This document shows positions 24,070-41,841 of a stretch of 64,000 nt of DNA, in pieces. A program made the translations under genes and the position numbers. Location of the stretch: assembly GCA_023227835.1 (NCBI GenBank), contig JALOCI010000003.1, positions 54,520 through 118,519 on the forward strand, written 5' to 3'. This DNA comes from Bacteroidales bacterium. GTDB lineage: Bacteria > Bacteroidota > Bacteroidia > Bacteroidales > UBA932. Each line of letters starts with the position of its first letter. The first letter of the stretch is position 1. The notes beneath the pieces were generated by a model. It was not told the DNA's origin. It searched no databases and saw only the letters and a program-made list of their open reading frames with translations.

Positions 24070-24173
24070 TATTTTTTGCTTAAATGTACTATATTTTCCG
24101 AATTTGGATAATTCACTGCTCAAAAACGTCAATATATTGGATAAAAACCAATTGAGATATTATCTTTGCTATT

Positions 24174-25994: not shown

Positions 25995-26378
25995 ATGAAA
26001 ATAGAACATATCGCAATCTGGACTGAGAATCTTGAACTTCTCAAGGATTTCTATATTAAGCATTTCGGATGTATGGTCTCTGACAGATATGAAAATCCCG
26101 CAAAGCAATTTGCATCTTACTTTCTGTCATTTGAAGAGGGTGCAAGAATAGAGATTATGACCCGTACCGGCATAAAGAGCAATCCAGAGCCTCCTGTGTC
26201 AGGATTAGCCCATTTTGCTATTATGGTTGATTCAAGAGATAGTGTTGATAGCTTCACTTCTCAAGTGCAACTAGACGGTGTAACTATTGCCGGATACCCC
26301 CGTGTTACCGGGGACGGATACTATGAAAGTGTGATTCTGGATCCGGACGGCAATCAAATAGAGATAGTTGCAAAATAA
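25995..26378 (+). CDS. VOC (glyoxalase/bleomycin-resistance/dioxygenase) family protein
   Basis: 127 aa. MKIEHIAIWTENLELLKDFY...HFAI...DPDGNQIEI is the typical paired beta-alpha-beta-beta-beta module with metal-ligand His/Glu positions. Confidence 0.75.
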   Translation: MKIEHIAIWTENLELLKDFYIKHFGCMVSDRYENPAKQFASYFLSFEEGARIEIMTRTGIKSNPEPPVSGLAHFAIMVDSRDSVDSFTSQVQLDGVTIAGYPRVTGDGYYESVILDPDGNQIEIVAK

Positions 26379-26413
26379 TCAGCTGCGGCTTCCTTTTCTG
26401 CATTTTTTCCCAT

Positions 26414-26445
26414 TTTGTCAATTCAAACATTAATTTATAAGTTTG
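26414..26445 (+). promoter_or_regulatory. Bacteroidota sigma-A-type promoter (-33 TTTG / -7 TAnnTTTG) upstream of the ECF sigma gene
   Basis: TTTG at 26414..26417 and TAAGTTTG at 26438..26445, spaced 20 nt apart, about 40 nt upstream of the ATG at 26488. Confidence 0.4.
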
Positions 26446-26487
26446 TAATTGGCAATTTGTGTTATTTCTCATTTTCTGAAATTGACA

Positions 26488-27018
26488 ATGGAAGAATTTA
26501 TCGCAGGAATCAATAAGAGGGAAGAAAAATCTTGGGGTATCCTTTTTGATTTTTATTATGCTCCCTTATGTGCCTATGCGGAAAAATTCCTTCGCAGTCA
26601 CGCCCTTGCTGAAGATATAGTTCAAGAGACTCTTATAAAAATATGGACATCTTCCAGTTTATTTGACAATAAACGCCACCTCACATTATATCTGTACAAA
26701 GCCATATATAATAATTCTATCTGCTATCTGCGTTCTAACAAAGAATCAACAGAGATTAACAGTACTATTGAAAATTGGAGTGATACTGATTTTGCTGCAA
26801 CAGTCAAAGAAGAGTTGTTCCGCCGTTTGTATGAAGAAATCCAGAAGCTGCCGGAACAAAGACGCAGAATAATTTTATTAAGTATAGACGGCAAATCTGG
26901 AAAAGAGATTGCGGAATTACTTAAAATCAGCCCCAACACCGTTAAAGGACAGAAATCAAAAGCCTTGGAAGCTCTTAGACGTAATACTAAAAATACCCCT
27001 TTAATTTTTCTTCTCTAA
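26488..27018 (+). CDS. ECF-type RNA polymerase sigma-70 factor
   Basis: Region 2 (AEDIVQETLIKIW) and a region 4 HTH (GKSGKEIAELLKISPNTVKGQKSKALEALR). Start MEEFIAGINK at 26488. Followed by a FecR-type anti-sigma gene. Confidence 0.85.
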   Translation: MEEFIAGINKREEKSWGILFDFYYAPLCAYAEKFLRSHALAEDIVQETLIKIWTSSSLFDNKRHLTLYLYKAIYNNSICYLRSNKESTEINSTIENWSDTDFAATVKEELFRRLYEEIQKLPEQRRRIILLSIDGKSGKEIAELLKISPNTVKGQKSKALEALRRNTKNTPLIFLL

Positions 27019-27103
27019 AAAGAGAGTTTTTTTTCTCTTTTTTTTCATTTCGGATAATACTTTTATTCGCTTTTTTCATATTATCACTAAACACTACGAA
27101 AGA

Positions 27104-28201
27104 ATGTCAGAAGAAACTAGATTTTACAATGCTCTTCAATCAATTATTAATGATGAAGACCAAACTGTAAAACAATTGGAGGAGGTAAGGGAACTTTATC
27201 ATAGAGGAGATGCATCTGTTGAGTTAAAGCGATATCACTCTTATGATAAGGAAAAGGCCTATTTGGTGTTTCAGAAGCGGACACGCAAAAAGAGCAAAAA
27301 CAAGGTTATCCGCTTGTCGTGGTCTATAGCAGCAGCTGCTGCTATCCTGATTGGCATTATTATTCCTTTCATCTGGCAACAAGATAGGCCGGCTCCGTCT
27401 CCAATATCTCAGCAATCAGCTATCCCGGCCCTTTCTGATTCACTACCACGCATAAAATTGGCCAGCGGAGAAATTATTGAAATACCCGATACCTGCAACT
27501 CTATAAATGTACAAGGAGTTAAGGCAACAATAAATAACAGCACACTTCAACTCAGCGGTATTAGTGATAATTCCTCTGCTGTGCAAATGAATGAAATAAT
27601 AATCCCTCGGGGAAGACAATACAGAATAACTCTGGAAGATGGTACCGCCGTATTGATGAATTCCGAATCTTCTTTGCGGTTTCCGAACAGATTTACAAAT
27701 TCGAGAGAGATAGAATTAAAAGGTCAGGCATTTTTTGATGTAACAAAAGATGGTCGCCCGTTTCGCGTAACATGTCCGACAGGAACAGTAACTGTATTAG
27801 GTACCTCATTCGACATAAGGAGTTATGAGGGCGAATCCACTCTGGTTACACTTGTCAAAGGCAAAGTTAAGTTTGCAGACGCATCTGCAGAAGTCACTCT
27901 TAAGCCGGGTGAACAGGTATGCCAGTCAGAAGAGGGACTCAAAGTTTATGTTGTTGATACACATCGCTTCACAGCATGGAAAGATGGTTTAATATATTTT
28001 GATGACAACCTGGAAAGTGTTATGCGAAATATTGAGAGAATATATGACGTGAAAGTGATATATAGTAATGAAGGCTACAAACAAATCAGGTTTATCGGTG
28101 AGTGCTCCCGGTTCCAAACAATTGATGAATTCATGAAGTTGCTGAGCCTTACACAAGAATTTAACTATGAAATTAACGGGAATATTGTCAAAATCGAGTG
28201 A
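27104..28201 (+). CDS. FecR-family anti-sigma factor / transmembrane sensor
   Basis: Single TM (LSWSIAAAAAILIGIIIPFIW), a periplasmic FecR domain (GRQYRITLEDGTAVLMNSESSLRF...) and a C-terminal DUF4974-like region. Confidence 0.85.
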   Translation: MSEETRFYNALQSIINDEDQTVKQLEEVRELYHRGDASVELKRYHSYDKEKAYLVFQKRTRKKSKNKVIRLSWSIAAAAAILIGIIIPFIWQQDRPAPSPISQQSAIPALSDSLPRIKLASGEIIEIPDTCNSINVQGVKATINNSTLQLSGISDNSSAVQMNEIIIPRGRQYRITLEDGTAVLMNSESSLRFPNRFTNSREIELKGQAFFDVTKDGRPFRVTCPTGTVTVLGTSFDIRSYEGESTLVTLVKGKVKFADASAEVTLKPGEQVCQSEEGLKVYVVDTHRFTAWKDGLIYFDDNLESVMRNIERIYDVKVIYSNEGYKQIRFIGECSRFQTIDEFMKLLSLTQEFNYEINGNIVKIE

Positions 28202-28279
28202 CCAAAGGAATGCGCGCTTCTGAAATCATTTCATTGACAAATTTCTGTTCCTATTTTATTACACCTAACAAAAAACAAG

Positions 28280-31200
28280 ATGAAAATAATTGACTTCATT
28301 CATCTAAGGCCATTATTGTGTCGTGCCAGAACAAAATGTTTTGTCATAACGTTTTGCCTTACTTGCTTCTTCGCATTACCTTCTCTTGCTCAAAGCCAGA
28401 GATATTCGGGAATTTTTAAAAATGAAAATGTCCGTGTCGTACTAGAATCTGTACAAAAAAGTACCGGAGTTAAATTTGTATATAACGCGGCTTTGATTAA
28501 CAACAGCACTATTGTAACCATCACTGCAGAAAATGAGACTGTTGACAACTTTTTACGACGTGTCCTTAATCCACTGGGACTAGAGATTATATGGCATGAT
28601 GGTGTTGCTGTAATCAGACGCAAGAATGTTAACAATAGCAAAAAAATCAACATATCAGGATACGTGACTGATACTGAAAAAGAGCCCCTGGCGGGAGTTA
28701 ATGTTGTTGTAGCAGGAACTGCTATCGGTGTTATGACAGACTCTCAGGGTAAATATGTTATATCGGCCAATCCGGATTGTGTCATGAAATTCAGCTTCAT
28801 TGGTATGGAGTCACAATTCGTTCCTTGTAACAATCGTGAAATAATAGATGTTGTAATGAAGGAAGATATGATGGTTATGCAAGATGCTGTAGTTACAGGT
28901 TATCAGACGATAAACCGCAATCACTTGACCTCTGCCATCACATCTATAAAAATGGATGATATTAAAACCCCCGGAGTAACTACCCTTGACCAGATGCTTG
29001 AAGGACGTATTCCCGGTATGATATTTATGAAAAATTCAGGTCAGGTCGGTGCTGCTCCAAAATTACGTATACGAGGTACTTCAACTATTCTGGGAAACCG
29101 CGAACCACTTTGGGTTCTAGACGGAATTGTCTTAGCAGATCCGGTAAATGTAGATCCGCAGCAGATTAACGACCCTGACTTTGTAAATTTGTTGGGAAAT
29201 GCCATTTCCGGTCTAAACCCAGATGACATTGAGCAAATCGATGTACTGAAAGATGCCTCAGCAACTGCACTTTATGGAGCAAAAGCAGGTAATGGTGTTA
29301 TTGTAATCTCCACAAAAAAAGGTAAATCAGGGAGACCTTCAATCTCATATTCCGGAACAACTACATACACACGTCGTCCTCAATACTCCGACCGTTCTAT
29401 CTATATGATGAACTCTGCAGAGAGGATGGATGTATCAAAAGAACTTGTGGACCGTAAGATGTACTACAACAATATATCTCAATGGTCTGGTTATGAGCAA
29501 GCCCTTCAAGATTACTACAGAGGTAAAATCACCTATGCTGAATTCAAGAGCCAGAGTGACTACTATGCATCAATAAATACCAATTGGCTTGGAATGTTAT
29601 GCAGAAATGCAATCTCACACAACCATACATTGAGCCTTTCGGGAGGAACCGCCAACATCAAGTATTATGCATCACTAGGTTACTCTAATGAGAATGGAGT
29701 TATAAAAAACGAAAAGAGTAACAGGTACTCAACAACACTTAATGTAACAGCAAATTACGACAAGTTCAATGTTCAGTTCTCCTTATTGGGAAACTATTCT
29801 GAAAGAGTCTATATTCCTGCAGATTTGGGTATTATGAACTATGCATACAATATGAGTAGGACGATGCCTGCATATAATGAAGATGGGAGTCCTTTTTACT
29901 ATCCCAAAGCGAATACAACAGGAATGATTATTTATAATTATAATATTATGAATGAGATTAATAATTGTGAGGATTCATCCACAGGAAACGGATTGAACAT
30001 GCGTACCCAGATTCGCTATAACGTACTACCATCTTTGAATATTGACGGGTTGCTCTCATATGGTATCACAAACAATACAAGAGAAACATATTATACCAAA
30101 AACTCATATTATGTATTCAACTTGAGAGGAGACCAAACGGAGCGTTGGGATCAATGTCCGGTAGGCGGGGAATTTAGCCGTAATGAGAGCACTAATCATA
30201 GTTATACAGCCAGATTACAGGCAAATTACTCTAAATTGTTCGGAACACATCAGAGTCACCTGGTATCCGCTTCAGCTGGTATTGAGGTAAAATCTAACGA
30301 GAATAAAGCATTTGATCTTACACGCAGAGGTTATTTCAATGAATTTGGTGGGTATTTCGATGCTGTCCCTACAAAATACAGCGGCTATTACAGTCAATGG
30401 ATGTCGACCAAGAAAGCGCTCGGCATCAATACACGCCAACTCAACAATGAATTGTCATGGTATGCCACAGCCGGATACGGGTGGAAAGACAGATATATAT
30501 TCAATGTGCATATTAGAGGTGAGCAATCTAATCTGTTCGGTTCCAGGGCAAATAGTGAGTTTATGCCGATATGGGCTGTATCAGGGCGTTGGAATATGAA
30601 AAAAGATCTGTTGAAAGAGGTTTCATGGATTGATGATATAGCCATGCGTGCATCTTGGGGATGGCAGGGTAATATGCTGCCGGGACAAACTTCTCGCATG
30701 ATCATGCAGATGTCAACTCTTAACAATCCAATATTTAATTCAGGATATGCAACTATATCAAAATATCCAAACCCGGATTTGAGGTGGGAACGAACTTCCT
30801 CAAGCAACCTTTCTGTTGATTTTGCTTTATTTCAAAATAAAGTAAGAGGTTCAGTCTCATATTTTTATAAGCATACCCGCGATGCCTTTCTTACAAAAAC
30901 AATATCTGAAATCAACGGTATAAATCAATATGTAGTCAATGGTGGTACTCTTGAAAACCAGGGTTTTGAATTGGCTCTTAGTTTCACTCCGATAGATAAC
31001 GCAAATCTTGGAGGCTCTTCCCGTGGGTTTGTGTGGCGAGTTGATCCCCAAATAGGTCAGGTATTGAATAAAGTATTGAATCGTGCTATAAATAATAAGA
31101 CCCACATTTTGCGTGATGAGGTGACATACAATGATTTCCTGAGCGGAAATATTGAGTTGGCCGGTAAACCAATAAGCACCTTCTACTCCTATCGATACAA

Positions 31201-31897
31201 AGGACTAAGTCCTGTAGATGGCTCTCCTGTTTTTTATGGGTCGGAGAATGAATTATCTGCAGAATATATGTTGAAATACTCACAGATGAAACGTGAGGAT
31301 GTATATATGGCTGTTATGGAGGAATCTGGAACACGTGAGCCGTATATCCAGGGTGGTATATCAAACTACTTCGGCTACCGTAATTTTGGTTTGTCATTTA
31401 ATCTGACCTACTCTTTGGGCAACAAAATAAGACTTATGAAAATTTGTTCAGGATATGCCTCAAATATAATTTATCCTCAGCAGAACTTACGTAAGGAGTT
31501 CACAAAACGTTGGAGAAAACCGGGAGATGAGGCATATACTGATATTCCGGGATTGAGTGCAAGCAATACAGTAAACTCTCCATGGTGGAATGTTTATCCT
31601 GCAACTCAATATTCTTTCGGAGGGACAGTGTACGATATGTACGACAATTCAAACCTGCGTGTAGTAAGTGGAGACTATCTGAAACTGCAATCCCTGTCAT
31701 TCCGTTACAATATAGCAGAGAACATTGCGAAGAAAATGGGTGTGCAGTCTGCATATATAAGCCTTTCTGGCACAAATTTATTCACGATCTGTAATAAAAG
31801 ACTGAAAGGCCAGGATCCGACACAATCCGGTTCTACACCTAACATCAACCTCTCTGAACGACCAACATTTTCACTAAATATCAATTTCACATTATAA
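28280..31897 (+). CDS. SusC/RagA-family TonB-dependent transducer (STN + CarboxypepD_reg + plug + barrel)
   Basis: 1205 aa with a signal peptide, an N-terminal STN signalling domain (VRVVLESVQKSTGVKFVYNA...) and a carboxypeptidase-regulatory-like domain (ISGYVTDTEKEPLAGVNVVV). The TonB-box/plug region reads DAVVTGYQT and IEQIDVLKDASATALYGAKAGNGVIVISTKKG. Confidence 0.9.
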   Translation: MKIIDFIHLRPLLCRARTKCFVITFCLTCFFALPSLAQSQRYSGIFKNENVRVVLESVQKSTGVKFVYNAALINNSTIVTITAENETVDNFLRRVLNPLGLEIIWHDGVAVIRRKNVNNSKKINISGYVTDTEKEPLAGVNVVVAGTAIGVMTDSQGKYVISANPDCVMKFSFIGMESQFVPCNNREIIDVVMKEDMMVMQDAVVTGYQTINRNHLTSAITSIKMDDIKTPGVTTLDQMLEGRIPGMIFMKNSGQVGAAPKLRIRGTSTILGNREPLWVLDGIVLADPVNVDPQQINDPDFVNLLGNAISGLNPDDIEQIDVLKDASATALYGAKAGNGVIVISTKKGKSGRPSISYSGTTTYTRRPQYSDRSIYMMNSAERMDVSKELVDRKMYYNNISQWSGYEQALQDYYRGKITYAEFKSQSDYYASINTNWLGMLCRNAISHNHTLSLSGGTANIKYYASLGYSNENGVIKNEKSNRYSTTLNVTANYDKFNVQFSLLGNYSERVYIPADLGIMNYAYNMSRTMPAYNEDGSPFYYPKANTTGMIIYNYNIMNEINNCEDSSTGNGLNMRTQIRYNVLPSLNIDGLLSYGITNNTRETYYTKNSYYVFNLRGDQTERWDQCPVGGEFSRNESTNHSYTARLQANYSKLFGTHQSHLVSASAGIEVKSNENKAFDLTRRGYFNEFGGYFDAVPTKYSGYYSQWMSTKKALGINTRQLNNELSWYATAGYGWKDRYIFNVHIRGEQSNLFGSRANSEFMPIWAVSGRWNMKKDLLKEVSWIDDIAMRASWGWQGNMLPGQTSRMIMQMSTLNNPIFNSGYATISKYPNPDLRWERTSSSNLSVDFALFQNKVRGSVSYFYKHTRDAFLTKTISEINGINQYVVNGGTLENQGFELALSFTPIDNANLGGSSRGFVWRVDPQIGQVLNKVLNRAINNKTHILRDEVTYNDFLSGNIELAGKPISTFYSYRYKGLSPVDGSPVFYGSENELSAEYMLKYSQMKREDVYMAVMEESGTREPYIQGGISNYFGYRNFGLSFNLTYSLGNKIRLMKICSGYASNIIYPQQNLRKEFTKRWRKPGDEAYTDIPGLSASNTVNSPWWNVYPATQYSFGGTVYDMYDNSNLRVVSGDYLKLQSLSFRYNIAENIAKKMGVQSAYISLSGTNLFTICNKRLKGQDPTQSGSTPNINLSERPTFSLNINFTL

Positions 31898-31910
31898 AGG
31901 TTTGTCTGAT

Positions 31911-33506
31911 ATGAAGAAATTTACATTATATATTCTTGTGTCAATCTTATTGACATCATGCAGCAATTTTCTGGAAGAATACTCGACGGATTTAAGGTAT
32001 TGCGAAACAGCCCAAGATCTCGAATATCTTATGATTGGCGAAGCTTTTCTCAATACTCCATCACTATCTGTATATAATCAAGCCACTATGAGTAAAGTTA
32101 ATCTCGAAGGATTGGTTAGTAGCTACAACTATCCGTGGCTTCATGTAATGGATGATGATGCCGAGGTTTTTGTTTGGGACAATGTTGCCGTTGACCAGGA
32201 AACCCCGCTCTATAAATTAAGTGGATTACATAACTGGTCTAACTCTCCATTTATGGATGTTTTTTCGAAAAAGTGGGAAGATACCCAATGGGAAAAAATG
32301 TATAAAAAAATAGGAGCCCTCAACTCAATTATCTTTCAGGCAACACAACTATCAGATAAAAAGGGGATAGATAAAGTATTGTTATCACACATAACCGGCG
32401 AAGCATATTTCCTGCGTGCCTTTTATTATTTCTACCTGAACAATATATATGGACTGCCCTACTCTATGGCAACGGCTTCATCAGATTTTGGGGTTCCATT
32501 AAAAACAACCGAGGTAGTTGAGGTAAAATATTTTTCACGTGCAACTAATGAAGAGGTGTACAACCAAATTATCTCTGACCTGGAACAGGCTGCCACTAAC
32601 TTGGAGGGATATACACCTGATAAAAAGATTCGTGTAGGGATTGGTGCCGTCAGGGCTTTTCAAAGTCGTGTCTACCTGTATATGGAAAGATATGATGAAG
32701 CCATCAAGGCAGCAGAAGAGATCGACAAAATGAGCTATGCCCTTCTAGACCTTAATGCTGTAGCACCCAAATCCAGTTCAACGTTCTACTCTTCAACTGA
32801 GACAATATTTACTGTCAGTGGTAATGAAATCCCGGTCGTTTTCATGAACGATTCGCTCTCTGCATGGAATGGCAATGATAACCGCGTATCTGCCTTCAAG
32901 GCTTCCAACAACTTGATGGACAAATATCAGCCAGGTGATCTGCGAATGACTAAATTCTTTTATGCTTCAGCTAAAAACAGGGCACCTATCCCCGGGAAAT
33001 ATACAACTTGGAAAACCTACAATGATCCTGAGGTTGTATCATCAGTCTTTGCAATCAGATATCCAGAGGTTATCTTAAACCGCGCTGAGGCTTTAGCTAT
33101 GCTTGGAAGAACCGAGGATGCACGCCAGGCTCTAAATAAGTTACGCATAAAACGCTTTGCTTCTGGAGCAATGAGTGATGTACCTTCAACAGAAAGTGAA
33201 CTGGTTTCATTTATTCGTGATGAAAGACGTCGTGAACTCTGCTTTGAAGGACACCGTTGGTTTGATCTGCGTCGTTATGCAGTAAACAGCAAGTATCCAC
33301 TCGACAAAAACTTTGTTATTCGCCACCCATCATACTCATACGATGAAAATTCAAAAATGAATTACCTGACAGGGTATTTTGAATTGGAATCTTATGATAA
33401 GGATAAAGCTGCATGGGTAGTCCCTGTTCCCGACTATGTAATATCATATAACAGGGGTTCTATTAAAAATTTGGAACGGAAAACACGTAACCTGATTAAA
33501 TATTAA
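31911..33506 (+). CDS. SusD/RagB-family outer-membrane lipoprotein
   Basis: Lipobox LLTSC. The C-terminal signature ERRRELCFEGHRWFDLRR is typical of the SusD family. Lies immediately downstream of susC. Confidence 0.9.
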   Translation: MKKFTLYILVSILLTSCSNFLEEYSTDLRYCETAQDLEYLMIGEAFLNTPSLSVYNQATMSKVNLEGLVSSYNYPWLHVMDDDAEVFVWDNVAVDQETPLYKLSGLHNWSNSPFMDVFSKKWEDTQWEKMYKKIGALNSIIFQATQLSDKKGIDKVLLSHITGEAYFLRAFYYFYLNNIYGLPYSMATASSDFGVPLKTTEVVEVKYFSRATNEEVYNQIISDLEQAATNLEGYTPDKKIRVGIGAVRAFQSRVYLYMERYDEAIKAAEEIDKMSYALLDLNAVAPKSSSTFYSSTETIFTVSGNEIPVVFMNDSLSAWNGNDNRVSAFKASNNLMDKYQPGDLRMTKFFYASAKNRAPIPGKYTTWKTYNDPEVVSSVFAIRYPEVILNRAEALAMLGRTEDARQALNKLRIKRFASGAMSDVPSTESELVSFIRDERRRELCFEGHRWFDLRRYAVNSKYPLDKNFVIRHPSYSYDENSKMNYLTGYFELESYDKDKAAWVVPVPDYVISYNRGSIKNLERKTRNLIKY

Positions 33507-33509
33507 GAT

Positions 33510-34439
33510 ATGAAAAGATTAAGTATAATAACTCTGGCTCTTGTGATTTTTTGTACATCATGCCAAAAAGAAGAGGTAACTAAGTTTCCGGATTATGATA
33601 AGGATTGGTTCGTTTTAGTGGACAATCCTTCTGATCCGGCCGACCATGCAGCATATCAATTTTATAAGGAATTCGGAATTCCCGTATTCTATAATGACAC
33701 AATCGGTGTTCAGGAAAGAGTTGACGTTTGGGGAAATAAGTATATGCATTATGAGCTGCTTTCGTTGAATTATTCTATGGGTGGAATGGCTACTTCAACC
33801 AGCTCCCCTACTATCAGTTCCCTGACATACTGCTCAAAACAGAGTGTGCCGAGTGCTCTCAGCTATCTTAAAGAGAATATCATGCCTCTTATCCCGAAGG
33901 CAATTCACATACACAGCTTTTTTCTTGTAGAGAGTATGAGTAGCCAGTCATTTGGCAACGCTGCTTTCAAAGGTATGAATACATTGGTTGTTGCCTCAGC
34001 ATCAAAACTATCAACCATGACCGATGATCAAAAGAAAAAATTCAATGGTGCTGTATTACGTGCTGCCCTGTCAGATTATATCATCAATCAAGGACGTTTT
34101 GACACTGAACTCGAAAAATTTTATAAAGTATCTACTGTTTTGTGTCCGACAAAAAATATTTACGGGCTATACACCTATTATTTAAGTTCTTCATACATCA
34201 CAGGTCTGCCGGCAGGTGTTCCGATAAATATCAATACCGTAGGATTCCTTTCGACCGATCCAGTCAGCACCTATTACACTCCAACCAGCACTTGGATGGA
34301 TGTGAATATGTATTTGGAAGCCATTCTCTCCGGGCCTCAAGAAGAATTCATAGCCAAGTACGGAACATTTGCCAACATTATGACCAAATATGGAATTATA
34401 AAGAACATCCTTCAAGAAACAGGTATAAATCTTAAATAA
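33510..34439 (+). CDS. hypothetical lipoprotein (SusE/F-position gene)
   Basis: Lipobox IFCTSC. Starts 3 nt after the susD stop. No family recognised by eye. Confidence 0.65.
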   Translation: MKRLSIITLALVIFCTSCQKEEVTKFPDYDKDWFVLVDNPSDPADHAAYQFYKEFGIPVFYNDTIGVQERVDVWGNKYMHYELLSLNYSMGGMATSTSSPTISSLTYCSKQSVPSALSYLKENIMPLIPKAIHIHSFFLVESMSSQSFGNAAFKGMNTLVVASASKLSTMTDDQKKKFNGAVLRAALSDYIINQGRFDTELEKFYKVSTVLCPTKNIYGLYTYYLSSSYITGLPAGVPININTVGFLSTDPVSTYYTPTSTWMDVNMYLEAILSGPQEEFIAKYGTFANIMTKYGIIKNILQETGINLK

Positions 34440-34454
34440 AAACATAAATATAAA

Positions 34455-35819
34455 ATGAAAAAAATTTTTTTAATAGCACTTTGTGTTATTATGGGACCCG
34501 TAACCATTGCCTCTGCCCAGAACTCCATACTGAAGGGCTCTTTCAAACGAATTGCCTATCAGAACGTACTATGTGATGATATTCATGTATACCTTATGGA
34601 TAGGGGCCAAATGAAACCTGTATTGGAAAATTTAATGAAGAAGGGTGCGTATACCTTCCAATTTGGAATCGGCCCCGATCAAAATATGTTCAATAAGATT
34701 TGCTATGTAGGAACTAATGGAGAATATTTTCCAGTTTATATTTCTCCGGACAATACAGTAGAAATTAATGTCGAAAACAGCAAAATAAATTTTGCAGGCA
34801 AACTCAACAAGGAAAACCAGGTAATTGCCAACTATTATAAAATCATCAGCCCATTGCACGAAATGATGTACACTAACAAAGCCAGGGCAGTGAGTGAAGA
34901 TGAAATTGCCAAGGTAATAAACGAGATAACTCCTCAGGCATTGAATTTTGTGAAACAAATCAAAACCGGCAATGTCAATTTTGACTCTTACATGAGATTT
35001 ATGTTGCCTTACAGTCTGCAGAATGATGTACTGCAGTTATATGCTCAAGGACGTTCATTCCCGAATGGGGCTTATCCTGAATATCTCAAAAAACTTTTTT
35101 CTACGGATAATTTTAATTCCATGAAAATTCTGGATCTTCCCTTTGGCTACGACCTGATGTTGATGTACGGCTTTGCCAAAGAGTGTATTGGCAATAAACG
35201 AATGGGGACGGGTGTAACTTTTGCAATCGAGAGCATTTCATGCAAAGAGTTGAAAGGTGAAGTGGCACTATGGGGTATGGAGAATAATTGTATAAATGAA
35301 GATCTGAATGTTTTCTCAGAAAAATACAAAGAATTCCTTGTCACAAAGGAGCAAAAAGAGCGTTTTGAAAAGTTTTATAGAATATTGTCTCTTAGAAAGG
35401 TTGGCGGTAACTGGGTGGATTTTTCATATCCGGACATTGACAACGTACAACGAAAGCTTTCTGACTATAAAGGCAAAGTTGTTGTAATAGACGTTTGGGC
35501 TTCATGGTGTGCTCCATGCCGCGCAGAATTTCCAAGCCTGAGAAAACTTGAAGAGGAGTTACAAGGCAAAGATGTAGTATTTATCGGTCTTTCACTCGAT
35601 ACAAAACACAAAGATTGGGAAGATATGGTGAAGAAAGAGAATTTACTCGGAGTCCAATTATATACCAATCGTGAGGGTGTAATCGTCAACGATTACAAAG
35701 TTGAAGCGGTACCTCAGTTCATTGTATTCTCAAAAGAGGGCAAGACAGTTGCCTTTGATGCACCAAGACCATCCAGCCCTAAGCTTAAGGAGATTATAGA
35801 AACTGAATTAAAGAAATAG
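34455..35819 (+). CDS. exported TlpA/redoxin-family thiol-disulfide oxidoreductase with long N-terminal extension
   Basis: Signal peptide MKKIFLIALCVIMGPVTIASAQN. The C-terminal redoxin domain reads GKVVVIDVWASWCAPCRAEFPSL, with the CxxC codons at 35508..35519. Confidence 0.85.
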   Translation: MKKIFLIALCVIMGPVTIASAQNSILKGSFKRIAYQNVLCDDIHVYLMDRGQMKPVLENLMKKGAYTFQFGIGPDQNMFNKICYVGTNGEYFPVYISPDNTVEINVENSKINFAGKLNKENQVIANYYKIISPLHEMMYTNKARAVSEDEIAKVINEITPQALNFVKQIKTGNVNFDSYMRFMLPYSLQNDVLQLYAQGRSFPNGAYPEYLKKLFSTDNFNSMKILDLPFGYDLMLMYGFAKECIGNKRMGTGVTFAIESISCKELKGEVALWGMENNCINEDLNVFSEKYKEFLVTKEQKERFEKFYRILSLRKVGGNWVDFSYPDIDNVQRKLSDYKGKVVVIDVWASWCAPCRAEFPSLRKLEEELQGKDVVFIGLSLDTKHKDWEDMVKKENLLGVQLYTNREGVIVNDYKVEAVPQFIVFSKEGKTVAFDAPRPSSPKLKEIIETELKK

Positions 35820-35821
35820 AT

Positions 35822-36904
35822 ATGAAACGCACAATCGCATTAATATTATTTATGGGTTCCATTTTGTTCAACTACAGCCTGATGGCTCAGGAAAAAGGAA
35901 CCAAATTTGAACATATAAGTGTAAAAGAGGCTATTGCCAAGGCATCAGCCAGTAAGAAGATGATTTTTATTGACTGTTATACAAAGTGGTGTGGTCCTTG
36001 TGCTAAAATGGCGACGCAGATCTTCCCGCTGGAGGAGTGTGCCAACTATTTTAATCCCAAATTTGTTTGTCTGAAAGTTGATATGGAGGTGGGTGAAGGA
36101 ATAGAACTCATGAAGAAGTTCGATGTAAAGGCATTCCCTACATTCCTTATTTTGGATTCTAAGGGGAGAGAATTAAACCGTATTGTAGGCGGAGCGGAAA
36201 ATGCATCTTCATTCATAAAACGTGTAGAAGAGGCTTTGAATCCTGAAAATTCACTGGTTGGATTAAAAAAGGCTTATGAGACAGACAAAACGATGGCAAA
36301 TGGCATCAAATATATAAAGGTCATGATGGAGTACGGAAAAGATACCGGTCCTGTTTTGGACAGCGTATATAATAATGCCGGTGACTTTGAACGCTACAAC
36401 ACAGAATTTATGCAACTTTTCTTCAGTGAACTGGATTACAGAAGCGAACGTTTCGACAGGCTAATGCTTGATAAGCCTTACCTAAACCGCGCTTTGGGCA
36501 CAGAAAATGTCAATTGGATGATTTTCAATTTGTACCGAAAAGGGATGTATCTCGTTGCTGCAGAACGTCCGCATAACTATACTGTAGAGGATGTACGTAA
36601 AGCCGCTTTGCTCACATCATTGTTGGATATGCCTATGGATGAAGCAGAAAAACATATTAGTATTATTGCCCTGTTTGTTATTCAGAAAGACTATGATGGG
36701 ATGATTAGATATTATGATCATTATGTTTGGAATTTGCCTAATGGGGCTTATAAGGGAATTCTTAACGGATTTTTGAGTAGTAAAGTTTCTAAGTTTTCTC
36801 CTGAGCAACGTAAGGCAGTAAAGGCTTACTTTGAGAAAGCAGCTAAAAACTACGGATATGAAGCGAGTCAATACTCCAATGCGCTAAGCAGTATGAAAGA
36901 ATAG
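35822..36904 (+). CDS. exported thioredoxin-fold protein (WCGPC) with C-terminal helical domain
   Basis: Signal peptide ending LMAQE. IFIDCYTKWCGPCAKM carries the CGPC codons at 35990..36001. AFPTFLILD provides the cis-Pro region. Confidence 0.8.
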   Translation: MKRTIALILFMGSILFNYSLMAQEKGTKFEHISVKEAIAKASASKKMIFIDCYTKWCGPCAKMATQIFPLEECANYFNPKFVCLKVDMEVGEGIELMKKFDVKAFPTFLILDSKGRELNRIVGGAENASSFIKRVEEALNPENSLVGLKKAYETDKTMANGIKYIKVMMEYGKDTGPVLDSVYNNAGDFERYNTEFMQLFFSELDYRSERFDRLMLDKPYLNRALGTENVNWMIFNLYRKGMYLVAAERPHNYTVEDVRKAALLTSLLDMPMDEAEKHISIIALFVIQKDYDGMIRYYDHYVWNLPNGAYKGILNGFLSSKVSKFSPEQRKAVKAYFEKAAKNYGYEASQYSNALSSMKE

Positions 36905-37021
36905 TCTAGTAAGTAAAATACTCTTAGCTGAATTCCCGGAGCGGTTTTGGAGTTTGAATTTCCGAGGCCGCTCCTTTGCTAAATATAGATTAAAATATAA
37001 CTCATATTTTATTACAAACAG

Positions 37022-38698
37022 ATGAAAAAAATTTTATTGTTAACTACCTTTTTGCTTGTATTCGCCTCTATATCCGCTCAGGACAAGATGCTGGACCTTT
37101 TAAAAGAAGAACTTAAAAGCCAGATGGCTACTCTTCAAAAGGGGGAGTATCCTCCTTACTATATGAATTACAGGGTAATTGATAATTACACCCGTGTTAT
37201 TAAATCTTCCATGGGAGGAATTAATACAGTTGAAGAGGATAAACAGGTTATATTTGTACCTCAGGTTAGAATAGGATCTCCCGATTTCGACAATTTCCAT
37301 GAAATAGAAAGTGGGGCTTCTGCCATTAGCTATGGTGGGCGATCTTCTGTCTTGTTACCAATTGATATAGAAAACAGTCAGGATGCGTTTAAGGAGATTA
37401 TGCGAGAGGAGGTCAACAACCGCTATAAAGTAGCAAAAATAAATTACGAAAGTGCAATTGCAAAGAAAGGTGTTCAGAGGGATAATGAAGATACCTCTCC
37501 GGATTTTACAGCTGCTGAAGCGGAGAAATATTATGAACCGCCTCTTAAGAATAATCAAATCGCATTTGATATAGATCTATGGAAAAAGAGACTGAATAAA
37601 TACTCAGCTTTTCTCGCAGAAAACAAAGATATAATTTATGCCAACGCCATTCTATCCTTTGAAATATGGAGAAAATACTTTGTATCTACTGAAGGGGCAG
37701 AAATAGTTGAAAACAGGGTATACATTCTTTTAACTATAAGTGGATCCTCCATGGCTGAAGACGGAATGGAACTGCCATTGAATATAAGCTATATGGCATT
37801 TACTCTGGATGAACTTCCTTCCGAAGCAATAATCAAGAAAGATATAAAAGCAATGTCTGCGAAACTTTCCGAGCTGAAGGTTGCCCCACTTGTTCAGCCG
37901 TTTTCAGGGCCGGCTTTATTATCCGGTTCCGCTAGCGGAGTTTTCTTTCATGAAATATTTGGGCATAGGGTCGAGGGACAAAAGATGAAGAGTGACTCAG
38001 ACGGCCAGACATTTAAAAAAATGGTCGGGGATTATGTACTCCCTAAAAACCTTAGTGTCTATATGGATCCTACAATGCAAAGATATCACGGTCATCCGCT
38101 TAACGGATACTATATCTTTGATGAACAAGGTGTAAGAGGAGAGCGTGTAGAGGTTGTAAAAGACGGAAAGTTGGAAAACTTTTTGATGACCAGAACCGGA
38201 ATTACAGGATTCAACAAATCGAACGGTCATGCCAGAGCTGAATTTGAGTATGATCCCACATCCCGCCAATCAAACTTGATAGTAGAAACGAACGAATATA
38301 AAAGTGAAGCTGAACTGAGAAAGCTGTTAATTAACGAAGCAAAAAAACAAGGTAAGGATTATGGGTATTATATTAAATCTGTTACCGGTGGTTTCACCCA
38401 GATAGCAAGATCTGTTACGAATTCATTCAACGTGACTCCACTTGAAGTATATAAGATTTATGTTGATGGTAGAAAAGACGAACTGGTAAGGGGTGTAGAT
38501 ATGATTGGCACTCCCCTCTCAATGTTCTCTAATATTGAATATGCCGGCGGAGATTTCGAGGTATTTACCGGAATTTGTGGTGCCACATCAGGAAATGTTC
38601 CTGTTACGGCTGTTTCACCAACAATTCTTGTAAATAAGGTAGAACTGCAAAAAAAAGCAAAACCGACTGTAACACCGGCAATATTGCAACGCCCCTGA
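37022..38698 (+). CDS. exported TldD-like metallopeptidase (TldD/PmbA family, catalytic-type subunit)
   Basis: Signal peptide MKKILLLTTFLLVFASISAQD. HExxxH is retained in GVFFHEIFGHRVEG (37949..37966). The C-terminal FTGICGATSGNVPV resembles the TldD C-terminal region (WTCGKEQYCPVSCG in the cytoplasmic copy). 558 aa versus 474 aa for the cytoplasmic TldD. Confidence 0.8.
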   Translation: MKKILLLTTFLLVFASISAQDKMLDLLKEELKSQMATLQKGEYPPYYMNYRVIDNYTRVIKSSMGGINTVEEDKQVIFVPQVRIGSPDFDNFHEIESGASAISYGGRSSVLLPIDIENSQDAFKEIMREEVNNRYKVAKINYESAIAKKGVQRDNEDTSPDFTAAEAEKYYEPPLKNNQIAFDIDLWKKRLNKYSAFLAENKDIIYANAILSFEIWRKYFVSTEGAEIVENRVYILLTISGSSMAEDGMELPLNISYMAFTLDELPSEAIIKKDIKAMSAKLSELKVAPLVQPFSGPALLSGSASGVFFHEIFGHRVEGQKMKSDSDGQTFKKMVGDYVLPKNLSVYMDPTMQRYHGHPLNGYYIFDEQGVRGERVEVVKDGKLENFLMTRTGITGFNKSNGHARAEFEYDPTSRQSNLIVETNEYKSEAELRKLLINEAKKQGKDYGYYIKSVTGGFTQIARSVTNSFNVTPLEVYKIYVDGRKDELVRGVDMIGTPLSMFSNIEYAGGDFEVFTGICGATSGNVPVTAVSPTILVNKVELQKKAKPTVTPAILQRP

Positions 38699-38726
38699 TA
38701 AGAATCGATTATTTAATATTTAAGAA

Positions 38727-40430
38727 ATGAAAAAAGCACATATCATAAGAACAATTTGCGCGCTCCTACTAATTCAGATTGTATCAATTTTTCCAATGAT
38801 GGGGCAAAAAAGCGATGAAATTCTATTTAAAGCCATGCAGGATGAGATGTCCCGAACAAAAAACGAACTCCGACTTCCAGGTGCTCCATCTACTCTATTT
38901 ATTGGTTACACCTTGGCAGAAAACAGGTTTTTATCTGTAAGTAGCACACTCGGATCTGTTACTTATATAAAAGAGAATCCTATCGAAAGAGTCAATACTG
39001 TAAATCTCTATGTTGGAGATAATCAGTTTTCAAGCAATTACTCTTATACTGGAAAAGGTGTAAATTCCAATTTTTTTACATGTGCGGAAGATAGTTATAA
39101 CCAAATAAGGAGTAATTTTTGGAGAACATCTGACTTAGCCTATAAATTCGCTGTTGAAGCATATAAATCAAAGCAAACAAATTTTAAAACAGCAAATCTG
39201 TCTGATGAGGAAAGAGCCTTGCCTGATATGTTAGAATTAAAAAAAATAGAGGTCTCTACTCCCGAAATACCCATTTACAATCCAAGTAAAAAGGCCTATG
39301 AAGATCTTTCTAAGTCCTTATCAAAAATTTTCATAAAACACCCGGATATTTTCTCTTCTTCTGTTGATATTAACGGCATTCAGACTATTTATTATTATTT
39401 AACGACAGAAGGCACCAGGATTAAAGAGCCCGTTGAATATGTAGCTATAACAATCAGTGGCAAGATTCGAAACGCCAAAGGACAGGTTTTGGAAGACAGA
39501 GATGTCATTTATGCAAAAGCCTTTGATAAGCTTCCTTCAAAAGAGGCTCTCTCATCTGTTGTGGAAAAATTTGCATCTAATCTTGATACGCTTCGTAATG
39601 CCGGTAATGTAGATGAGTACTATCTTGGTCCTGTCCTTTTTGAAGACGCTGCCTCTGCTGAGATATTTGCGTGGAATCTCATATCTCCTTCAGGTATAAT
39701 GGCATACAGAAAACCGATACAGGTAATGTCCTCTATATACAGACCAGAGAACGTAATCGGAGCAATAAACACAAAACCATTGGAAGATAGAATAAATAAA
39801 AAAGTTATTGATAGCAGGCTTAATGTAACGAACTTTTCAGGTTTATTGGAATACAACGGAGAACCTTTAATTGGATCCTATAATTATGATGCCCAGGGTA
39901 TAGCTCCTGTCAAAGAGCTGAAAATAATAGAGAATGGCATTTTAAAATCTTTATTGAGCACCCGATTCCCAACAAAGAAAATCAAAGAGTCAAGTGGTAG
40001 TCTGAGGTTTGGCGCAACGCCAAGGGCAATTCCTGTTGGAGTTGCTCCGGGGGTTCTTGTGATATCAGCTCCAAACGGTGCAGCATCTTCAGAACTAAAG
40101 TCACAACTTATCGCTGCAGCAATTGAAGAGGGTTTGGATTATGCATATATTGTAAGAAATATAAATGGAGATTCAAATCAGTTTATATACAAGGTATCAG
40201 TAAAAGATGGAGCAGAAACGCTTCTCATAGGGGCGCAAATTTCCCCTGTTCAATTCTCTAAATTGAAAAGAGTCCTTGGAGTAAATAAAGAGCAAACCGT
40301 TTATAACTATTTATATAATGGAGCTATTCCTACATCAATTATTGCCCCCAGATCTCTCCTTCTAGAAGATGTTGAGATAGTGGATACACAGCTTAATGTT
40401 CAGGAAGAATCCCCTTTAATCCGAAAATAA
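38727..40430 (+). CDS. exported PmbA/TldE-like protein (TldD/PmbA family, no HExxxH)
   Basis: Signal peptide MKKAHIIRTICALLLIQIVSIFPMMGQ. Its length and layout parallel the upstream gene. At the equivalent position it reads SAEIFAWNLISPSG, so no metal motif. Assignment rests on weak similarity seen by eye plus the pairing. Confidence 0.65.
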   Translation: MKKAHIIRTICALLLIQIVSIFPMMGQKSDEILFKAMQDEMSRTKNELRLPGAPSTLFIGYTLAENRFLSVSSTLGSVTYIKENPIERVNTVNLYVGDNQFSSNYSYTGKGVNSNFFTCAEDSYNQIRSNFWRTSDLAYKFAVEAYKSKQTNFKTANLSDEERALPDMLELKKIEVSTPEIPIYNPSKKAYEDLSKSLSKIFIKHPDIFSSSVDINGIQTIYYYLTTEGTRIKEPVEYVAITISGKIRNAKGQVLEDRDVIYAKAFDKLPSKEALSSVVEKFASNLDTLRNAGNVDEYYLGPVLFEDAASAEIFAWNLISPSGIMAYRKPIQVMSSIYRPENVIGAINTKPLEDRINKKVIDSRLNVTNFSGLLEYNGEPLIGSYNYDAQGIAPVKELKIIENGILKSLLSTRFPTKKIKESSGSLRFGATPRAIPVGVAPGVLVISAPNGAASSELKSQLIAAAIEEGLDYAYIVRNINGDSNQFIYKVSVKDGAETLLIGAQISPVQFSKLKRVLGVNKEQTVYNYLYNGAIPTSIIAPRSLLLEDVEIVDTQLNVQEESPLIRK

Positions 40431-40470
40431 GGTAAATTATTAAACCAACAATATTTTTTACATTCTATAA

Positions 40471-40504
40471 TTTGGGTTGAGTTCAATTAAGAACTCAACC
40501 CAAA
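40471..40504. terminator. strong intrinsic terminator hairpin closing the SusC..PmbA-like gene string
   Basis: Perfect 14-bp stem TTTGGGTTGAGTTC / GAACTCAACCCAAA with a 6-nt loop AATTAA, followed by TTTTTA. Confidence 0.7.
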
Positions 40505-40638
40505 TTTTTATTCTTAAAACATTTCATAAGGCTGTAAAAGAACAATTATAATAGGGCAATGAGATGATAGAAATGTGAAGGTTTTCAACAGGTTGAGTCC
40601 TTGTCGGCGGTCAGGCTGGTTCAATATTCCATTCACTA

Positions 40639-41841
40639 TTAACCGATTACTCCGGAACCAATCATCTCATCCGCATCATACCAAGCCGCGAACTGCCCCT
40701 CGGTAACACCTCTCTGAGGCATGTCAAATATTATATAGAGACCATTTTCCCTCATGAAAAGCCGGGCCTTTTGAAGAGGTTGCCTGTACCTGATTCTGAC
40801 AAGATAGTCCCGAACTTCTCCGAGCTCCATTTTCAAATCCTCCCTAATCCAGTGAATCTCCTCTCTTTGTATCAGAAGTCCTTTGCGATATAATCCCGGA
40901 TGGGTCTGACCCTCCCCTACAAATATTGTATTCTCAGCAACATCTGTCTCAATTATGAATATTGGTTCAACATGTCCCCCGATATTCAACCCCTTCCGCT
41001 GACCTATCGTATAGAAATGAGCCCCCTGATGTTTACCTATAATCTTCCCCTCTTCTGCTTTGTATCTGTATTTTGCAGAAAGTTCATCCAGCAAACTATC
41101 GCAAATCACATCATAACCGGGCACATTGTATTTGAAAAAAACGTTTCGTTTGTAAAAGTTTCTGAATATCTCAACAACAGGCCCCTCTTTAGGTGCAAGT
41201 TTCTGTTGCAGAAAAACGGGGAGATCGACCTTACCTACAAAACAGATACCCTGAGAATCCTTTTTCTCCGCTGAGGGCAGCCCGGCCTCTGCAGCAATCC
41301 TGCGAACCTCCGGTTTCAAAAGGTGACCAATTGGAAAAAGTGCTTTGGAAAGCTGTTCTTGAGTCAGTTGGCAAAGAAAATAGCTCTGGTCTTTATTGGG
41401 ATCAGAGCCGGCAAGTATCCTGAATATCTCCTTTCCCTCACCGTTAGTAAAGCTCTCCTTCCTGCAATAGTGTCCCGTTGCAACAAAATCAGCTCCGAGA
41501 TCCAGTGCCTCCTTAAGAAATGCCTCAAATTTTATCTCACTGTTGCACATCACATCCGGATTCGGAGTCCTTCCGTGTTCATATTCCGCAAACATATAGT
41601 CAACCACACGTTTACGATAAACCGAACTCAAATCCACAAAATGGAAAGGTATACCAATCTTTCTGGCAACCATCTCCGCCACAGACCTCTCCTCTTCCCA
41701 CTCGCAATCTCCGTGCAACGTGCCGGTAGTATCACTCCAGTTCTGCATAAACATTGCAATCACATCGTAACCTGCCTGTTTAAGAAGCAGGGCAGCTACG
41801 CTGGAATCAACTCCGCCAGAAAGACCGACTGCGATTTTCAT
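40639..41841 (-). CDS. mnmA: tRNA 2-thiouridine(34) synthase MnmA
   Basis: PP-loop motif KIAVGLSGGVDSSVAA. Catalytic Cys context NPDVMCN and GICFVG. Confidence 0.9.
   Translation of the reverse strand: MKIAVGLSGGVDSSVAALLLKQAGYDVIAMFMQNWSDTTGTLHGDCEWEEERSVAEMVARKIGIPFHFVDLSSVYRKRVVDYMFAEYEHGRTPNPDVMCNSEIKFEAFLKEALDLGADFVATGHYCRKESFTNGEGKEIFRILAGSDPNKDQSYFLCQLTQEQLSKALFPIGHLLKPEVRRIAAEAGLPSAEKKDSQGICFVGKVDLPVFLQQKLAPKEGPVVEIFRNFYKRNVFFKYNVPGYDVICDSLLDELSAKYRYKAEEGKIIGKHQGAHFYTIGQRKGLNIGGHVEPIFIIETDVAENTIFVGEGQTHPGLYRKGLLIQREEIHWIREDLKMELGEVRDYLVRIRYRQPLQKARLFMRENGLYIIFDMPQRGVTEGQFAAWYDADEMIGSGVIG

Follow-up and report, generated by a model that had tools for sequence, protein, structure and literature searches.

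Many SusC/SusD (SusCD) loci of gut and soil Bacteroidota lack carbohydrate-active enzymes (CAZymes) and have no known function. What might such a system take up, and what would it do with its cargo? The question is posed here by nine co-directional genes on the + strand (26488-40430) of a 64,000-nucleotide (nt) stretch of DNA from a Bacteroidales bacterium (contig JALOCI010000003.1, positions 54,520 to 118,519), referred to below as the window. In order, they encode an extracytoplasmic function (ECF) sigma factor, a FecR anti-sigma factor, SusC, SusD, a further lipoprotein, two thioredoxin (Trx)-fold proteins, and a TldD-like and a PmbA-like protein. The chances are about even that the locus is a substrate-induced system which would import, reduce and degrade disulfide-bonded peptides or small proteins, and the locus type gives a testable hypothesis for one class of these SusCD loci.

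Gene content

An earlier note on this DNA, made by reading the sequence, had described nine co-directional genes with these identities, and the open reading frames (ORFs) and the domain assignments (Pfam and NCBIfam) agree with it. The intergenic gaps measure, 5' to 3', 85, 78, 4, 3, 15, 2, 117 and 28 nt, matching the values it gave (2-15 nt from susC to the thioredoxin gene, then 117 and 28). Rule-based inspection finds a basic N-terminus, a hydrophobic core and an Ala-X-Ala-type site or a lipobox in every product downstream of FecR. These features are kept in the family alignments and bear out the claim that all of these proteins carry export signals. The locus is closed by an intrinsic terminator (40469..40506, + strand; 16-bp stem, 6-nt loop, then TTTTTATTCTT). 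A terminator had been correctly expected after the last gene, with a stem two pairs too short (14 bp, 40471..40504).

The search for glycoside hydrolases, lyases, esterases and sulfatases gave zero matches among the nine products in Pfam and NCBIfam, as the note had also read them, and no CAZyme was found inside the orthologous loci in any lineage examined. Neither the nine products nor the orthologous loci form a polysaccharide utilization locus (PUL) in the CAZy/PULDB sense of susCD plus carbohydrate-active enzymes.

Signalling pair and importer

The sigma factor gene (26488..27018, + strand) encodes 176 amino acids (aa) from the ATG at 26488, the same start codon as in the ortholog of locus L087. 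The product is an ECF-type sigma-70 protein with Sigma70_r2 and Sigma70_r4_2 regions and a TIGR02985 match of 130 bits, above the cut-off. It is followed by fecR (27104..28201, + strand), which codes for a 365-aa anti-sigma factor with FecR (E 7e-18) and FecR_C (E 4e-17) domains and one membrane-spanning segment. The position of fecR upstream of susC is conserved in orthologous loci. Sigma-70 regions 2 and 4, FecR and FecR_C, all beside a TonB-dependent transducer, identify an ECF sigma/FecR pair, for which signalling is predicted.

The product of susC (28280..31897, + strand; 1205 aa) is a SusC/RagA TonB-dependent transporter (TIGR04056, 643 bits with a cut-off of 368; TIGR04057 signature, 58.9 bits; Plug, E 2.6e-17; CarbopepD_reg_2). 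Its N-terminal signalling extension is STN-like, with an E-value of 6e-6 and a score of 26.4 bits that lies just under the Pfam cut-off of 28.4; orthologs carry STN matches too, some of them weak. The neighbouring FecR and ECF sigma factor are consistent with an STN-type transducer role for this SusC. Directly 3' of it, susD (31902..33506, + strand) encodes a SusD-like lipoprotein lid with the lipobox LTSC (SusD_RagB, E 2e-25; SusD-like_3, E 1e-21); ATG 31911 is a more likely start than TTG 31902.

Among solved structures the best match to SusC is ButC (8YPU/8YPT) at 327 bits, with the runner-up at 198, RagA at 164 and BT2264 at 79, and the best match to SusD is ButD (8YPT_A) at 110 bits. In Bacteroides fragilis, ButCD imports the ubiquitin-like toxin BfUbb, the C-terminal disulfide of which is essential for its activity and toxicity, and deletion of ButCD alone makes the cells resistant (PMC11467351). 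The import of a folded small protein has been demonstrated for ButCD alone (PMC11467351). Polysaccharide genes are absent from the butCD locus, a zinc metalloprotease is a neighbour, and its discoverers describe ButCD as a putative system for protein-related nutrient utilisation (PMC11467351).

A lipoprotein that marks the locus type

The gene next to susD (33510..34439, + strand) encodes a 309-aa lipoprotein that matches no Pfam or NCBIfam family, even at E<=10. The family alignment shows an invariant Cys18 with an acidic (R/Q)KEE motif after it; no Cys is conserved other than this lipidated one. The arrangement resembles the acidic surface-export signal of Bacteroidota lipoproteins, and the protein is probably surface-exposed. 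An AlphaFold2 (AF2) model is confident (pLDDT 87.8), and a fold search of the PDB with it found no relative (best E 0.35, TM<0.2). The family forms 54 clusters at 90% identity, and its profile detects 740 representatives at 50% identity, of which 541 reach E<=1e-10. In the loci examined the gene is always directly 3' of susD. This is a large uncharacterised family of SusD-adjacent lipoproteins and a marker of the locus type; with 740 members and no known fold, it is a likely substrate-capture component.

With this lipoprotein as marker, gene neighbourhoods were collected from cultured genomes, and a census of 80 further metagenome loci gave 58 informative loci including the window. The succession of sigma factor, FecR, SusC, SusD, lipoprotein and Trx-fold genes is kept in Bacteroidales, Xylanibacter, Chitinophaga and Pedobacter and in many metagenomes. 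Chance cannot account for the arrangement, because at least 58 informative loci, drawn from three classes of Bacteroidota, show this gene order.

Thioredoxin-fold proteins

The first Trx-fold gene (tlpA-like, 34455..35819, + strand) encodes a 454-aa thiol-disulfide oxidoreductase with a WCAPC motif and a signal peptide that ends ...IASA before QN. Residues 317-432 match AhpC-TSA, Redoxin and Thioredoxin_8; matches to the ResA and TlpA models of NCBIfam fall below the equivalog cut-offs, and the N-terminal domain (residues 1-316) has nothing in Pfam at E<=10. With its Trx fold, CxxC motif and predicted export, the product is of the TlpA/ResA type. The second (trx-like, 35822..36904, + strand) encodes an exported protein of 360 aa. 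Residues 33-135 form a Thioredoxin, Thioredoxin_7 or DsbH-type domain with the motif WCGPC, in which W56, C57, P59 and C60 are invariant; WCxPC is conserved across orthologs in both families. CGPC is the classical reducing thioredoxin motif.

The AF2 model of the trx-like protein (pLDDT 92.7) has an N-terminal Trx domain and an all-helical C-terminal domain (helices within residues 128-357), for which Pfam holds nothing at E<=10. The N-domain matches the folds of 2KUC from B. thetaiotaomicron (43% identity), DsbH and DsbD-gamma, and its likeness to the last two, which are of the reductant type, speaks for reduction as the reaction. Over the whole length only YbbN/CnoX (3QOU, 3QDN) is matched, weakly (TM 0.25-0.31).

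TlpA/ResA homologs are classically cytochrome-maturation reductants. Could the Trx-fold proteins then serve general envelope redox, cytochrome maturation or the system's own proteins, for example by keeping the Cys metal ligand of TldD reduced? That TldD has such a ligand, and the classical role of the homologs, would fit. Against this, two to five Trx genes persist in related loci whether the accompanying protease is of family S1, S9 or M16, is a met-zincin or is missing altogether; their synteny is strictly with the SusCD-lipoprotein core and not with cytochrome genes; and the lipoprotein offers no conserved Cys beyond the lipidated one. We regard this explanation as very improbable. Cytochrome maturation in particular was rejected because the synteny of the Trx genes with the SusCD-lipoprotein core is strict in all three classes. 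Genes for cytochrome maturation were not found next to the tlpA-like gene, either in the flanks of the locus or in the orthologous neighbourhoods.

An exported TldD/PmbA pair

The tldD-like gene (37022..38698, + strand) encodes 558 aa, predicted to be the exported catalytic subunit of a metalloprotease, with a signal peptide that ends ...SISA before QDK and a PmbA_TldD_3rd match at E 8e-30. It aligns to E. coli TldD (5NJ5_A) at E 1.7e-10 over the C-terminal ~270 residues only, with HEIFGH falling on HEAVGH and GICG on GVCG. H310, E311, H315 and C519 are invariant in 14 diverse homologs and correspond to E. coli H262, E263, H267 and C454, so that the metalloprotease motif is intact. In the E. 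coli enzyme the metal site is formed by His262, His267 and Cys454, with Cys as a metal ligand, and the chains that TldD/E cleaves are exclusively unfolded ones, which thread through a narrow pore (PMC5810440). The pmbA-like gene (38727..40430, + strand; 567 aa), which follows tldD in most loci, encodes the predicted exported, non-catalytic PmbA/TldE-like partner: PmbA_TldD_3rd is matched at E 9e-9, HExxxH is absent, and a sequence search of the PDB gave no match.

Relatives of the tldD-like protein number more than 7000, mostly from Bacteroidales, with at least 582 matches in species-representative genomes. The family is a large Bacteroidota-specific clade of TldD/PmbA proteins predicted to be exported. 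Fused TldD-PmbA proteins of ~1090 aa occur in Prevotella, Segatella, Xylanibacter and others (L019, L028, L029, L030, L044, L065, L081 and further loci). The fusion at L028:9971-13270 has two PmbA_TldD_3rd stretches, and the pmbA-like protein aligns with residues 569-1068 of the L081 fusion, its C-terminal half (29% identity, E 2e-66). The observation supports the idea that the fusions are a natural single-chain version of the heterodimer, and because they exist the TldD-like and PmbA-like proteins of the window would be expected to pair.

The exported pair is a widespread, mobile module found in varied contexts. A susC gene stands in the same co-directional chain in 11 of 43 tldD loci with more than 6 kb of upstream sequence, and 12 of 43 loci with enough flank have tldD at the head of their co-directional chain. 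At L002:7778-9961 a Peptidase_S46 protein (DPP7-like, 727 aa, E 5e-196) is encoded 30 nt upstream of a stand-alone TldD/PmbA pair, and at L019:7744-9171 a Gln_deamidase_2 (PF18626) protein is encoded upstream of a fused TldD-PmbA. The exported tldD has no universal partner, because a Pfam scan of 87 upstream neighbours found locus-relevant recurrence only of DUF4998, DUF4959 and S46; response-regulator and sigma-54-activator domains recur too and are apparently unrelated.

Some of these contexts are of glycan type. In a metagenome-assembled genome of Dysgonamonadaceae (L009:3-13382), SusC, a SusD-like PF12741 protein, a GH18 BT1044-like endo-beta-N-acetylglucosaminidase and two BT_3987-like_N proteins precede TldD/PmbA, which suggests that the module also handles the peptide part of glycopeptides. 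ECF-regulated SusC-SusD-DUF4959-DUF4998/F5-8C loci of Prevotella and Segatella likewise end in the module. Because the exported pair also ends such loci, glycopeptide backbones are an alternative substrate. The window system might accordingly take up a glycopeptide or glycoprotein fragment, its CAZymes being encoded elsewhere, while the Trx-fold proteins and the protease would treat a Cys-rich peptide part (mucin-type or N-glycoprotein domains). ECF-sigma/anti-sigma SusC loci in Bacteroides are typically host-glycan loci, which counts in favour of this idea together with the N-glycan-type PUL L009 and the DUF4959-DUF4998 loci. It is set against the complete lack of CAZymes within or beside the lipoprotein-marked loci in any lineage examined, and against the nearest solved SusCD being the protein importer ButCD and no glycan transporter. 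A glycopeptide substrate is rather unlikely.

Redoxins of the DUF4369-TlpA type also lie beside exported TldD or other peptidases at L029:13326-14426, L084:13920-15095, L169:17080-18216 and in L031, where two TlpA-like genes precede a fused TldD-PmbA. Together these cases hint at a broader redoxin-peptidase link in the Bacteroidota periplasm, even outside the core architecture. In addition, Bacteroidota gene content (SusC, exported TldD/PmbA) was seen in bins labelled Hyphomicrobiales, Oscillospiraceae, Lachnospiraceae and Acinetobacter pittii (L025, L044, L049, L067), probably a result of binning contamination.

A slot for interchangeable peptidases

A peptidase gene follows the Trx genes in 38 of the 58 informative loci. 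Twenty have an S1 protease, 11 a fused TldD-PmbA, and three, the window with L005 and L087, a split TldD/PmbA pair; four have two DUF5118/DUF5117/DUF4953 met-zincins and/or an S9 dipeptidyl peptidase IV (DPP-IV)-type peptidase around the TlpA/Trx genes. In Xylanibacter oryzae (L081) the core from sigma factor to lipoprotein is followed by TlpA (~450 aa), Trx (~365 aa) and a fused TldD-PmbA whose start overlaps the trx stop. In Chitinophaga defluvii (L082) and Pedobacter suwonensis (L083) the same TlpA and Trx genes lead to an S1 Trypsin_2 protease of ~300 aa, and on a 3.7-Mb ENA contig (L084) an additional DUF4369-TlpA gene comes before the S1 Trypsin_2 protease. The protease gene overlaps trx in L030, L081, L120 and L121; Trx and protease genes lie -4 to 65 nt apart where the protease is a fused TldD or of the S1 type, and it is only in the split-TldD group that the distance reaches 110-166 nt.

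Distant members have three to five Trx-fold copies and a met-zincin, M16 or S9 peptidase. After sigma factor, FecR, SusC and SusD, L168 encodes three Trx proteins together with a met-zincin and a Peptidase_M16 protein. In L169 the Trx proteins number four and are joined by a met-zincin and DUF4369-TlpA, while a Peptidase_M1 protein is encoded upstream, and L170 combines two met-zincins with TlpA, Trx and S9. In L167, a short contig and the most distant locus sampled, a Fib_succ_major protein takes the place of Trx, and for this reason the Trx association belongs to the subfamily and not necessarily to the whole lipoprotein superfamily.

The remaining 20 loci are on human-gut contigs, almost identical to one another, that encode two Trx_7-type proteins (368 and 693 aa) and lack an adjacent peptidase. 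No hidden peptidase was found in the C-terminal 414 aa of the 693-aa protein; a faint second Trx_7 signal (E 0.09) was found there, and the protein may be an internal duplication. In this clade (L122-L157, e.g. L130:10984-14190) a second sigma-FecR-SusC-SusD locus directly follows.

Exported peptidases that belong to at least five unrelated families thus occupy this position interchangeably. The proposal of the earlier note, that disulfide-containing peptides are imported, reduced and degraded, is backed by the neighbourhoods as far as a non-glycan, trans-envelope-signalled SusCD system with thiol-disulfide and proteolytic cargo is concerned. The neighbourhood census also shows that the Trx genes are syntenic with SusCD and that glycoside hydrolases are missing. 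TldD/PmbA is not the fixed partner it had supposed; the pair is one interchangeable module, found stand-alone as well.

The near-invariance of the Trx-fold genes as cargo, together with the clade from which peptidases are missing, could also mean that what is imported is a disulfide or sulfur compound other than a peptide, with the peptidases incidental. Given the recurrence in one slot of peptidases from at least five families, and a ButCD-like transporter that is sized for protein, we consider this the most improbable of the explanations weighed here.

Module swapping of this kind resembles arms-race modularity, and it has been asked whether the locus senses and destroys disulfide-stabilised antimicrobial peptides or toxins (BfUbb-, bacteroidetocin- or defensin-like) that enter via SusCD. 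The closest solved transporter is the entry gate of BfUbb, a toxin that depends on its disulfide, and an inducible reductase and protease would inactivate such molecules. However, an importer kept merely to detoxify what it imports is costly when loss of ButCD by itself gives resistance. Exopeptidase-type cargo (S9 in the locus, S46 beside TldD/PmbA in L002, M16) fits nutrition better, no known defence family was matched by PADLOC, and the locus is conserved in soil and gut taxa alike. Defence is decidedly unlikely to be the function.

Gap hairpin and history of the slot

The 117-nt gap between trx and tldD contains a hairpin (36938..36974, + strand; 15-bp stem, 7-nt loop). The earlier note called it weak, which it is not: the gap folds at -31.2 kcal/mol (z = -4.15), and none of 200 shuffled sequences was as stable. 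The terminator scan did not call it because its 3' tail, UUUGCU, is U-poor. The hairpin is conserved in the closest syntenic relative, L087, and not in L005. No Rfam match was obtained, and the idea of a dispersed repeat was rejected, as the element is present in a single copy within the window. An attenuator, a leaky terminator or an mRNA-stability element would each be possible. Because the pair sits behind this strong hairpin, partial transcriptional independence of tldD and pmbA is plausible.

In the extreme case there would be two adjacent independent units, a SusCD-lipoprotein-Trx operon that ends at the hairpin and a separately expressed, housekeeping TldD/PmbA pair. The nearest TldD relatives outside L087 (70-77% identity; L001-L004, L006) are stand-alone pairs amid unrelated genes, with no SusCD or Trx genes upstream, and this is closer than the 62% shared with the syntenic L005. 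The frequency with which tldD heads its chain, the strength of the hairpin and the human-gut clade of the core without a protease would all agree with such a division. On the other side are the 38 related loci with a protease of unrelated families in the same slot, the protease genes that often overlap the trx stop codon in relatives, and the lack of a U-tract after the hairpin. The phylogeny of the core is a further point, and with it two independent units seem unlikely.

The trees are rough neighbor-joining (NJ) distance trees. In the tree of the lipoprotein, which represents the core, cargo type follows clades, and both the S1 clade and the split-TldD clade with the window are nested in a fused-TldD grade. 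In the TldD tree stand-alone split pairs form the sister group of the copies from the window and L087, and L120 and L121 group with the TldDs of DUF4959-type loci. Between the window and L005, identity is 80% for SusC, 62% for TldD and 49% for PmbA. Because the window clade is nested among fused TldD-PmbA loci, like-for-like replacement is more parsimonious than chance adjacency. On the simplest reading the conserved slot would have undergone repeated replacement of one protease by another of its kind; in the window lineage a split pair akin to the stand-alone pairs would have replaced an ancestral fused gene, and would have brought or acquired the longer leader with its hairpin.

How the system might work

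If disulfide-bonded peptides or small proteins are indeed the substrate, they would be captured by the surface lipoprotein together with SusD and imported by the ButC-like SusC, the N-terminal extension of SusC signalling to FecR and the ECF sigma factor so that the operon is induced and its genes are expressed together. In the periplasm the TlpA-like redoxin and the trx-like protein would open the disulfides, by reduction rather than by oxidation or isomerisation, and the trx-like protein with its helical domain perhaps keeps the chain unfolded. The exported TldD/PmbA heterodimer, as a closed-chamber metalloprotease for unfolded chains, would then trim the linearised peptide. Disulfide reduction before proteolysis is mechanistically sensible for TldD/PmbA because E. 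coli TldD/E takes only unfolded, threaded chains. M16 peptidases, one of which was found in the slot context in L168, are chamber enzymes as well. The protease would be a plug-in module for which relatives use fused TldD-PmbA, S1, DUF4953 met-zincins, S9 or M16.

Several observations weigh against this proposal. The human-gut clade of ~20 loci has Trx genes and no adjacent peptidase, and the exported module is likewise found at the end of glycan-type loci, such as L009 with its GH18 and the DUF4959/DUF4998 loci. The window TldD is closer to stand-alone pairs than to its syntenic counterpart in L005, and its gene, behind a 117-nt gap with a strong hairpin, may partly have its own transcription. 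No homolog of a CcdA/DsbD-type electron donor was found within the 64-kb window, and the direction of thiol-disulfide exchange is not fixed by sequence alone.

With somewhat less than even confidence, the loci can be seen as a widespread, so far undescribed Bacteroidota class of Sus-like system for disulfide-cross-linked peptides or small proteins. A ButCD-clade importer and a novel-fold lipoprotein would be combined with periplasmic reductases that linearise the cargo for a plug-in protease, and exported TldD/PmbA would act as a periplasmic chamber protease. If this is true, it would give the large exported TldD/E clade its first proposed physiological role, assigning a periplasmic catabolic function to a group of which more than 7000 proteins were detected, and it would indicate a natural function for the transporters hijacked by ubiquitin-like toxins. 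Possible substrates include defensins, protease inhibitors, plant or fungal Cys-rich peptides, and keratin or mucin fragments; these candidates bear on nutrition, host-microbe interaction and interbacterial competition.

Flanking genes and other observations

The genes on both sides of the locus are unrelated housekeeping genes. Upstream are a histidine kinase, a DUF5131 protein (23335-24132, - strand; E 2e-40), a pentapeptide-repeat protein (24174-24749, + strand), a nitroreductase and a glyoxalase. Downstream, mnmA lies next past the terminator on the opposite strand, and cytidine deaminase, a glucosaminidase-LysM protein and MltG complete the flank. A search of positions 26000-41000 against Rfam gave no credible match, and megablast found no similar plasmid DNA.

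In several metagenome loci (L030:1366-4967, L148, L158:4744-8385) susC is split into two consecutive ORFs, by a frameshift or pseudogene formation or through an assembly error. Downstream of the Prevotella locus, at L030:16159-21562, four co-directional ORFs (719, 225, 564 and 285 aa) are by eye a candidate type I-C CRISPR-Cas system (cas3, cas5, cas8c, cas7).

Comparison with known systems

The window Trx proteins have the Trx fold and WCxPC motif in common with DsbH, DsbD-gamma and TlpA/ResA. Unlike those of TlpA/ResA, their genes lie outside a cytochrome-maturation context. The succession of a Trx domain and a helical domain in the 360-aa protein recalls YbbN/CnoX; E. coli YbbN has no CxxC motif and is cytoplasmic. 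TldD/TldE of E. coli is resembled in the possession of HExxxH and a distal Cys by one subunit and in the motif-less partner. In contrast to the cytoplasmic E. coli proteins, both window subunits have signal peptides, a feature conserved family-wide.

Classical ECF-sigma/anti-sigma PULs have the same architecture of sigma factor, FecR, SusC with an STN domain (STN-like in the window), SusD and surface lipoprotein, with tight operon spacing. The window locus differs from them in its cargo, which consists of redox enzymes and peptidases in place of glycoside hydrolases, lyases, esterases and sulfatases. RagAB of Porphyromonas gingivalis is also of SusCD type and reportedly imports oligopeptides, not glycans; RagA is far less similar to the window SusC (164 bits) and, to our knowledge, the RagAB locus includes neither a sigma/anti-sigma pair nor Trx-fold cargo nor a periplasmic protease of its own.

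ButCD is like the window system in several ways. It provides the closest solved SusC and SusD, its locus has a neighbouring zinc metalloprotease and no CAZymes, the small protein it imports bears a disulfide, and a protein-nutrient role has been proposed for it. Differences are that the ButCD paper mentions no sigma or STN element (PMC11467351), and that no Trx-fold genes, marker lipoprotein or TldD/PmbA are described for its locus. The existence of susCD loci with peptidases, 'likely involved in peptide transport', has been acknowledged in passing. In the open-access and bioRxiv literature searched, no description was found of SusCD loci with Trx-fold and TldD/PmbA or swap-in peptidase cargo, in keeping with the earlier note, which knew of no characterised system of such composition. 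Because RagAB and ButCD establish peptide and protein import by SusCD systems, the locus is a variant within a known theme and not wholly new. What is new is the combination of a ButCD-clade importer and a novel-fold lipoprotein with a conserved, modular cargo of redox proteins and proteases.

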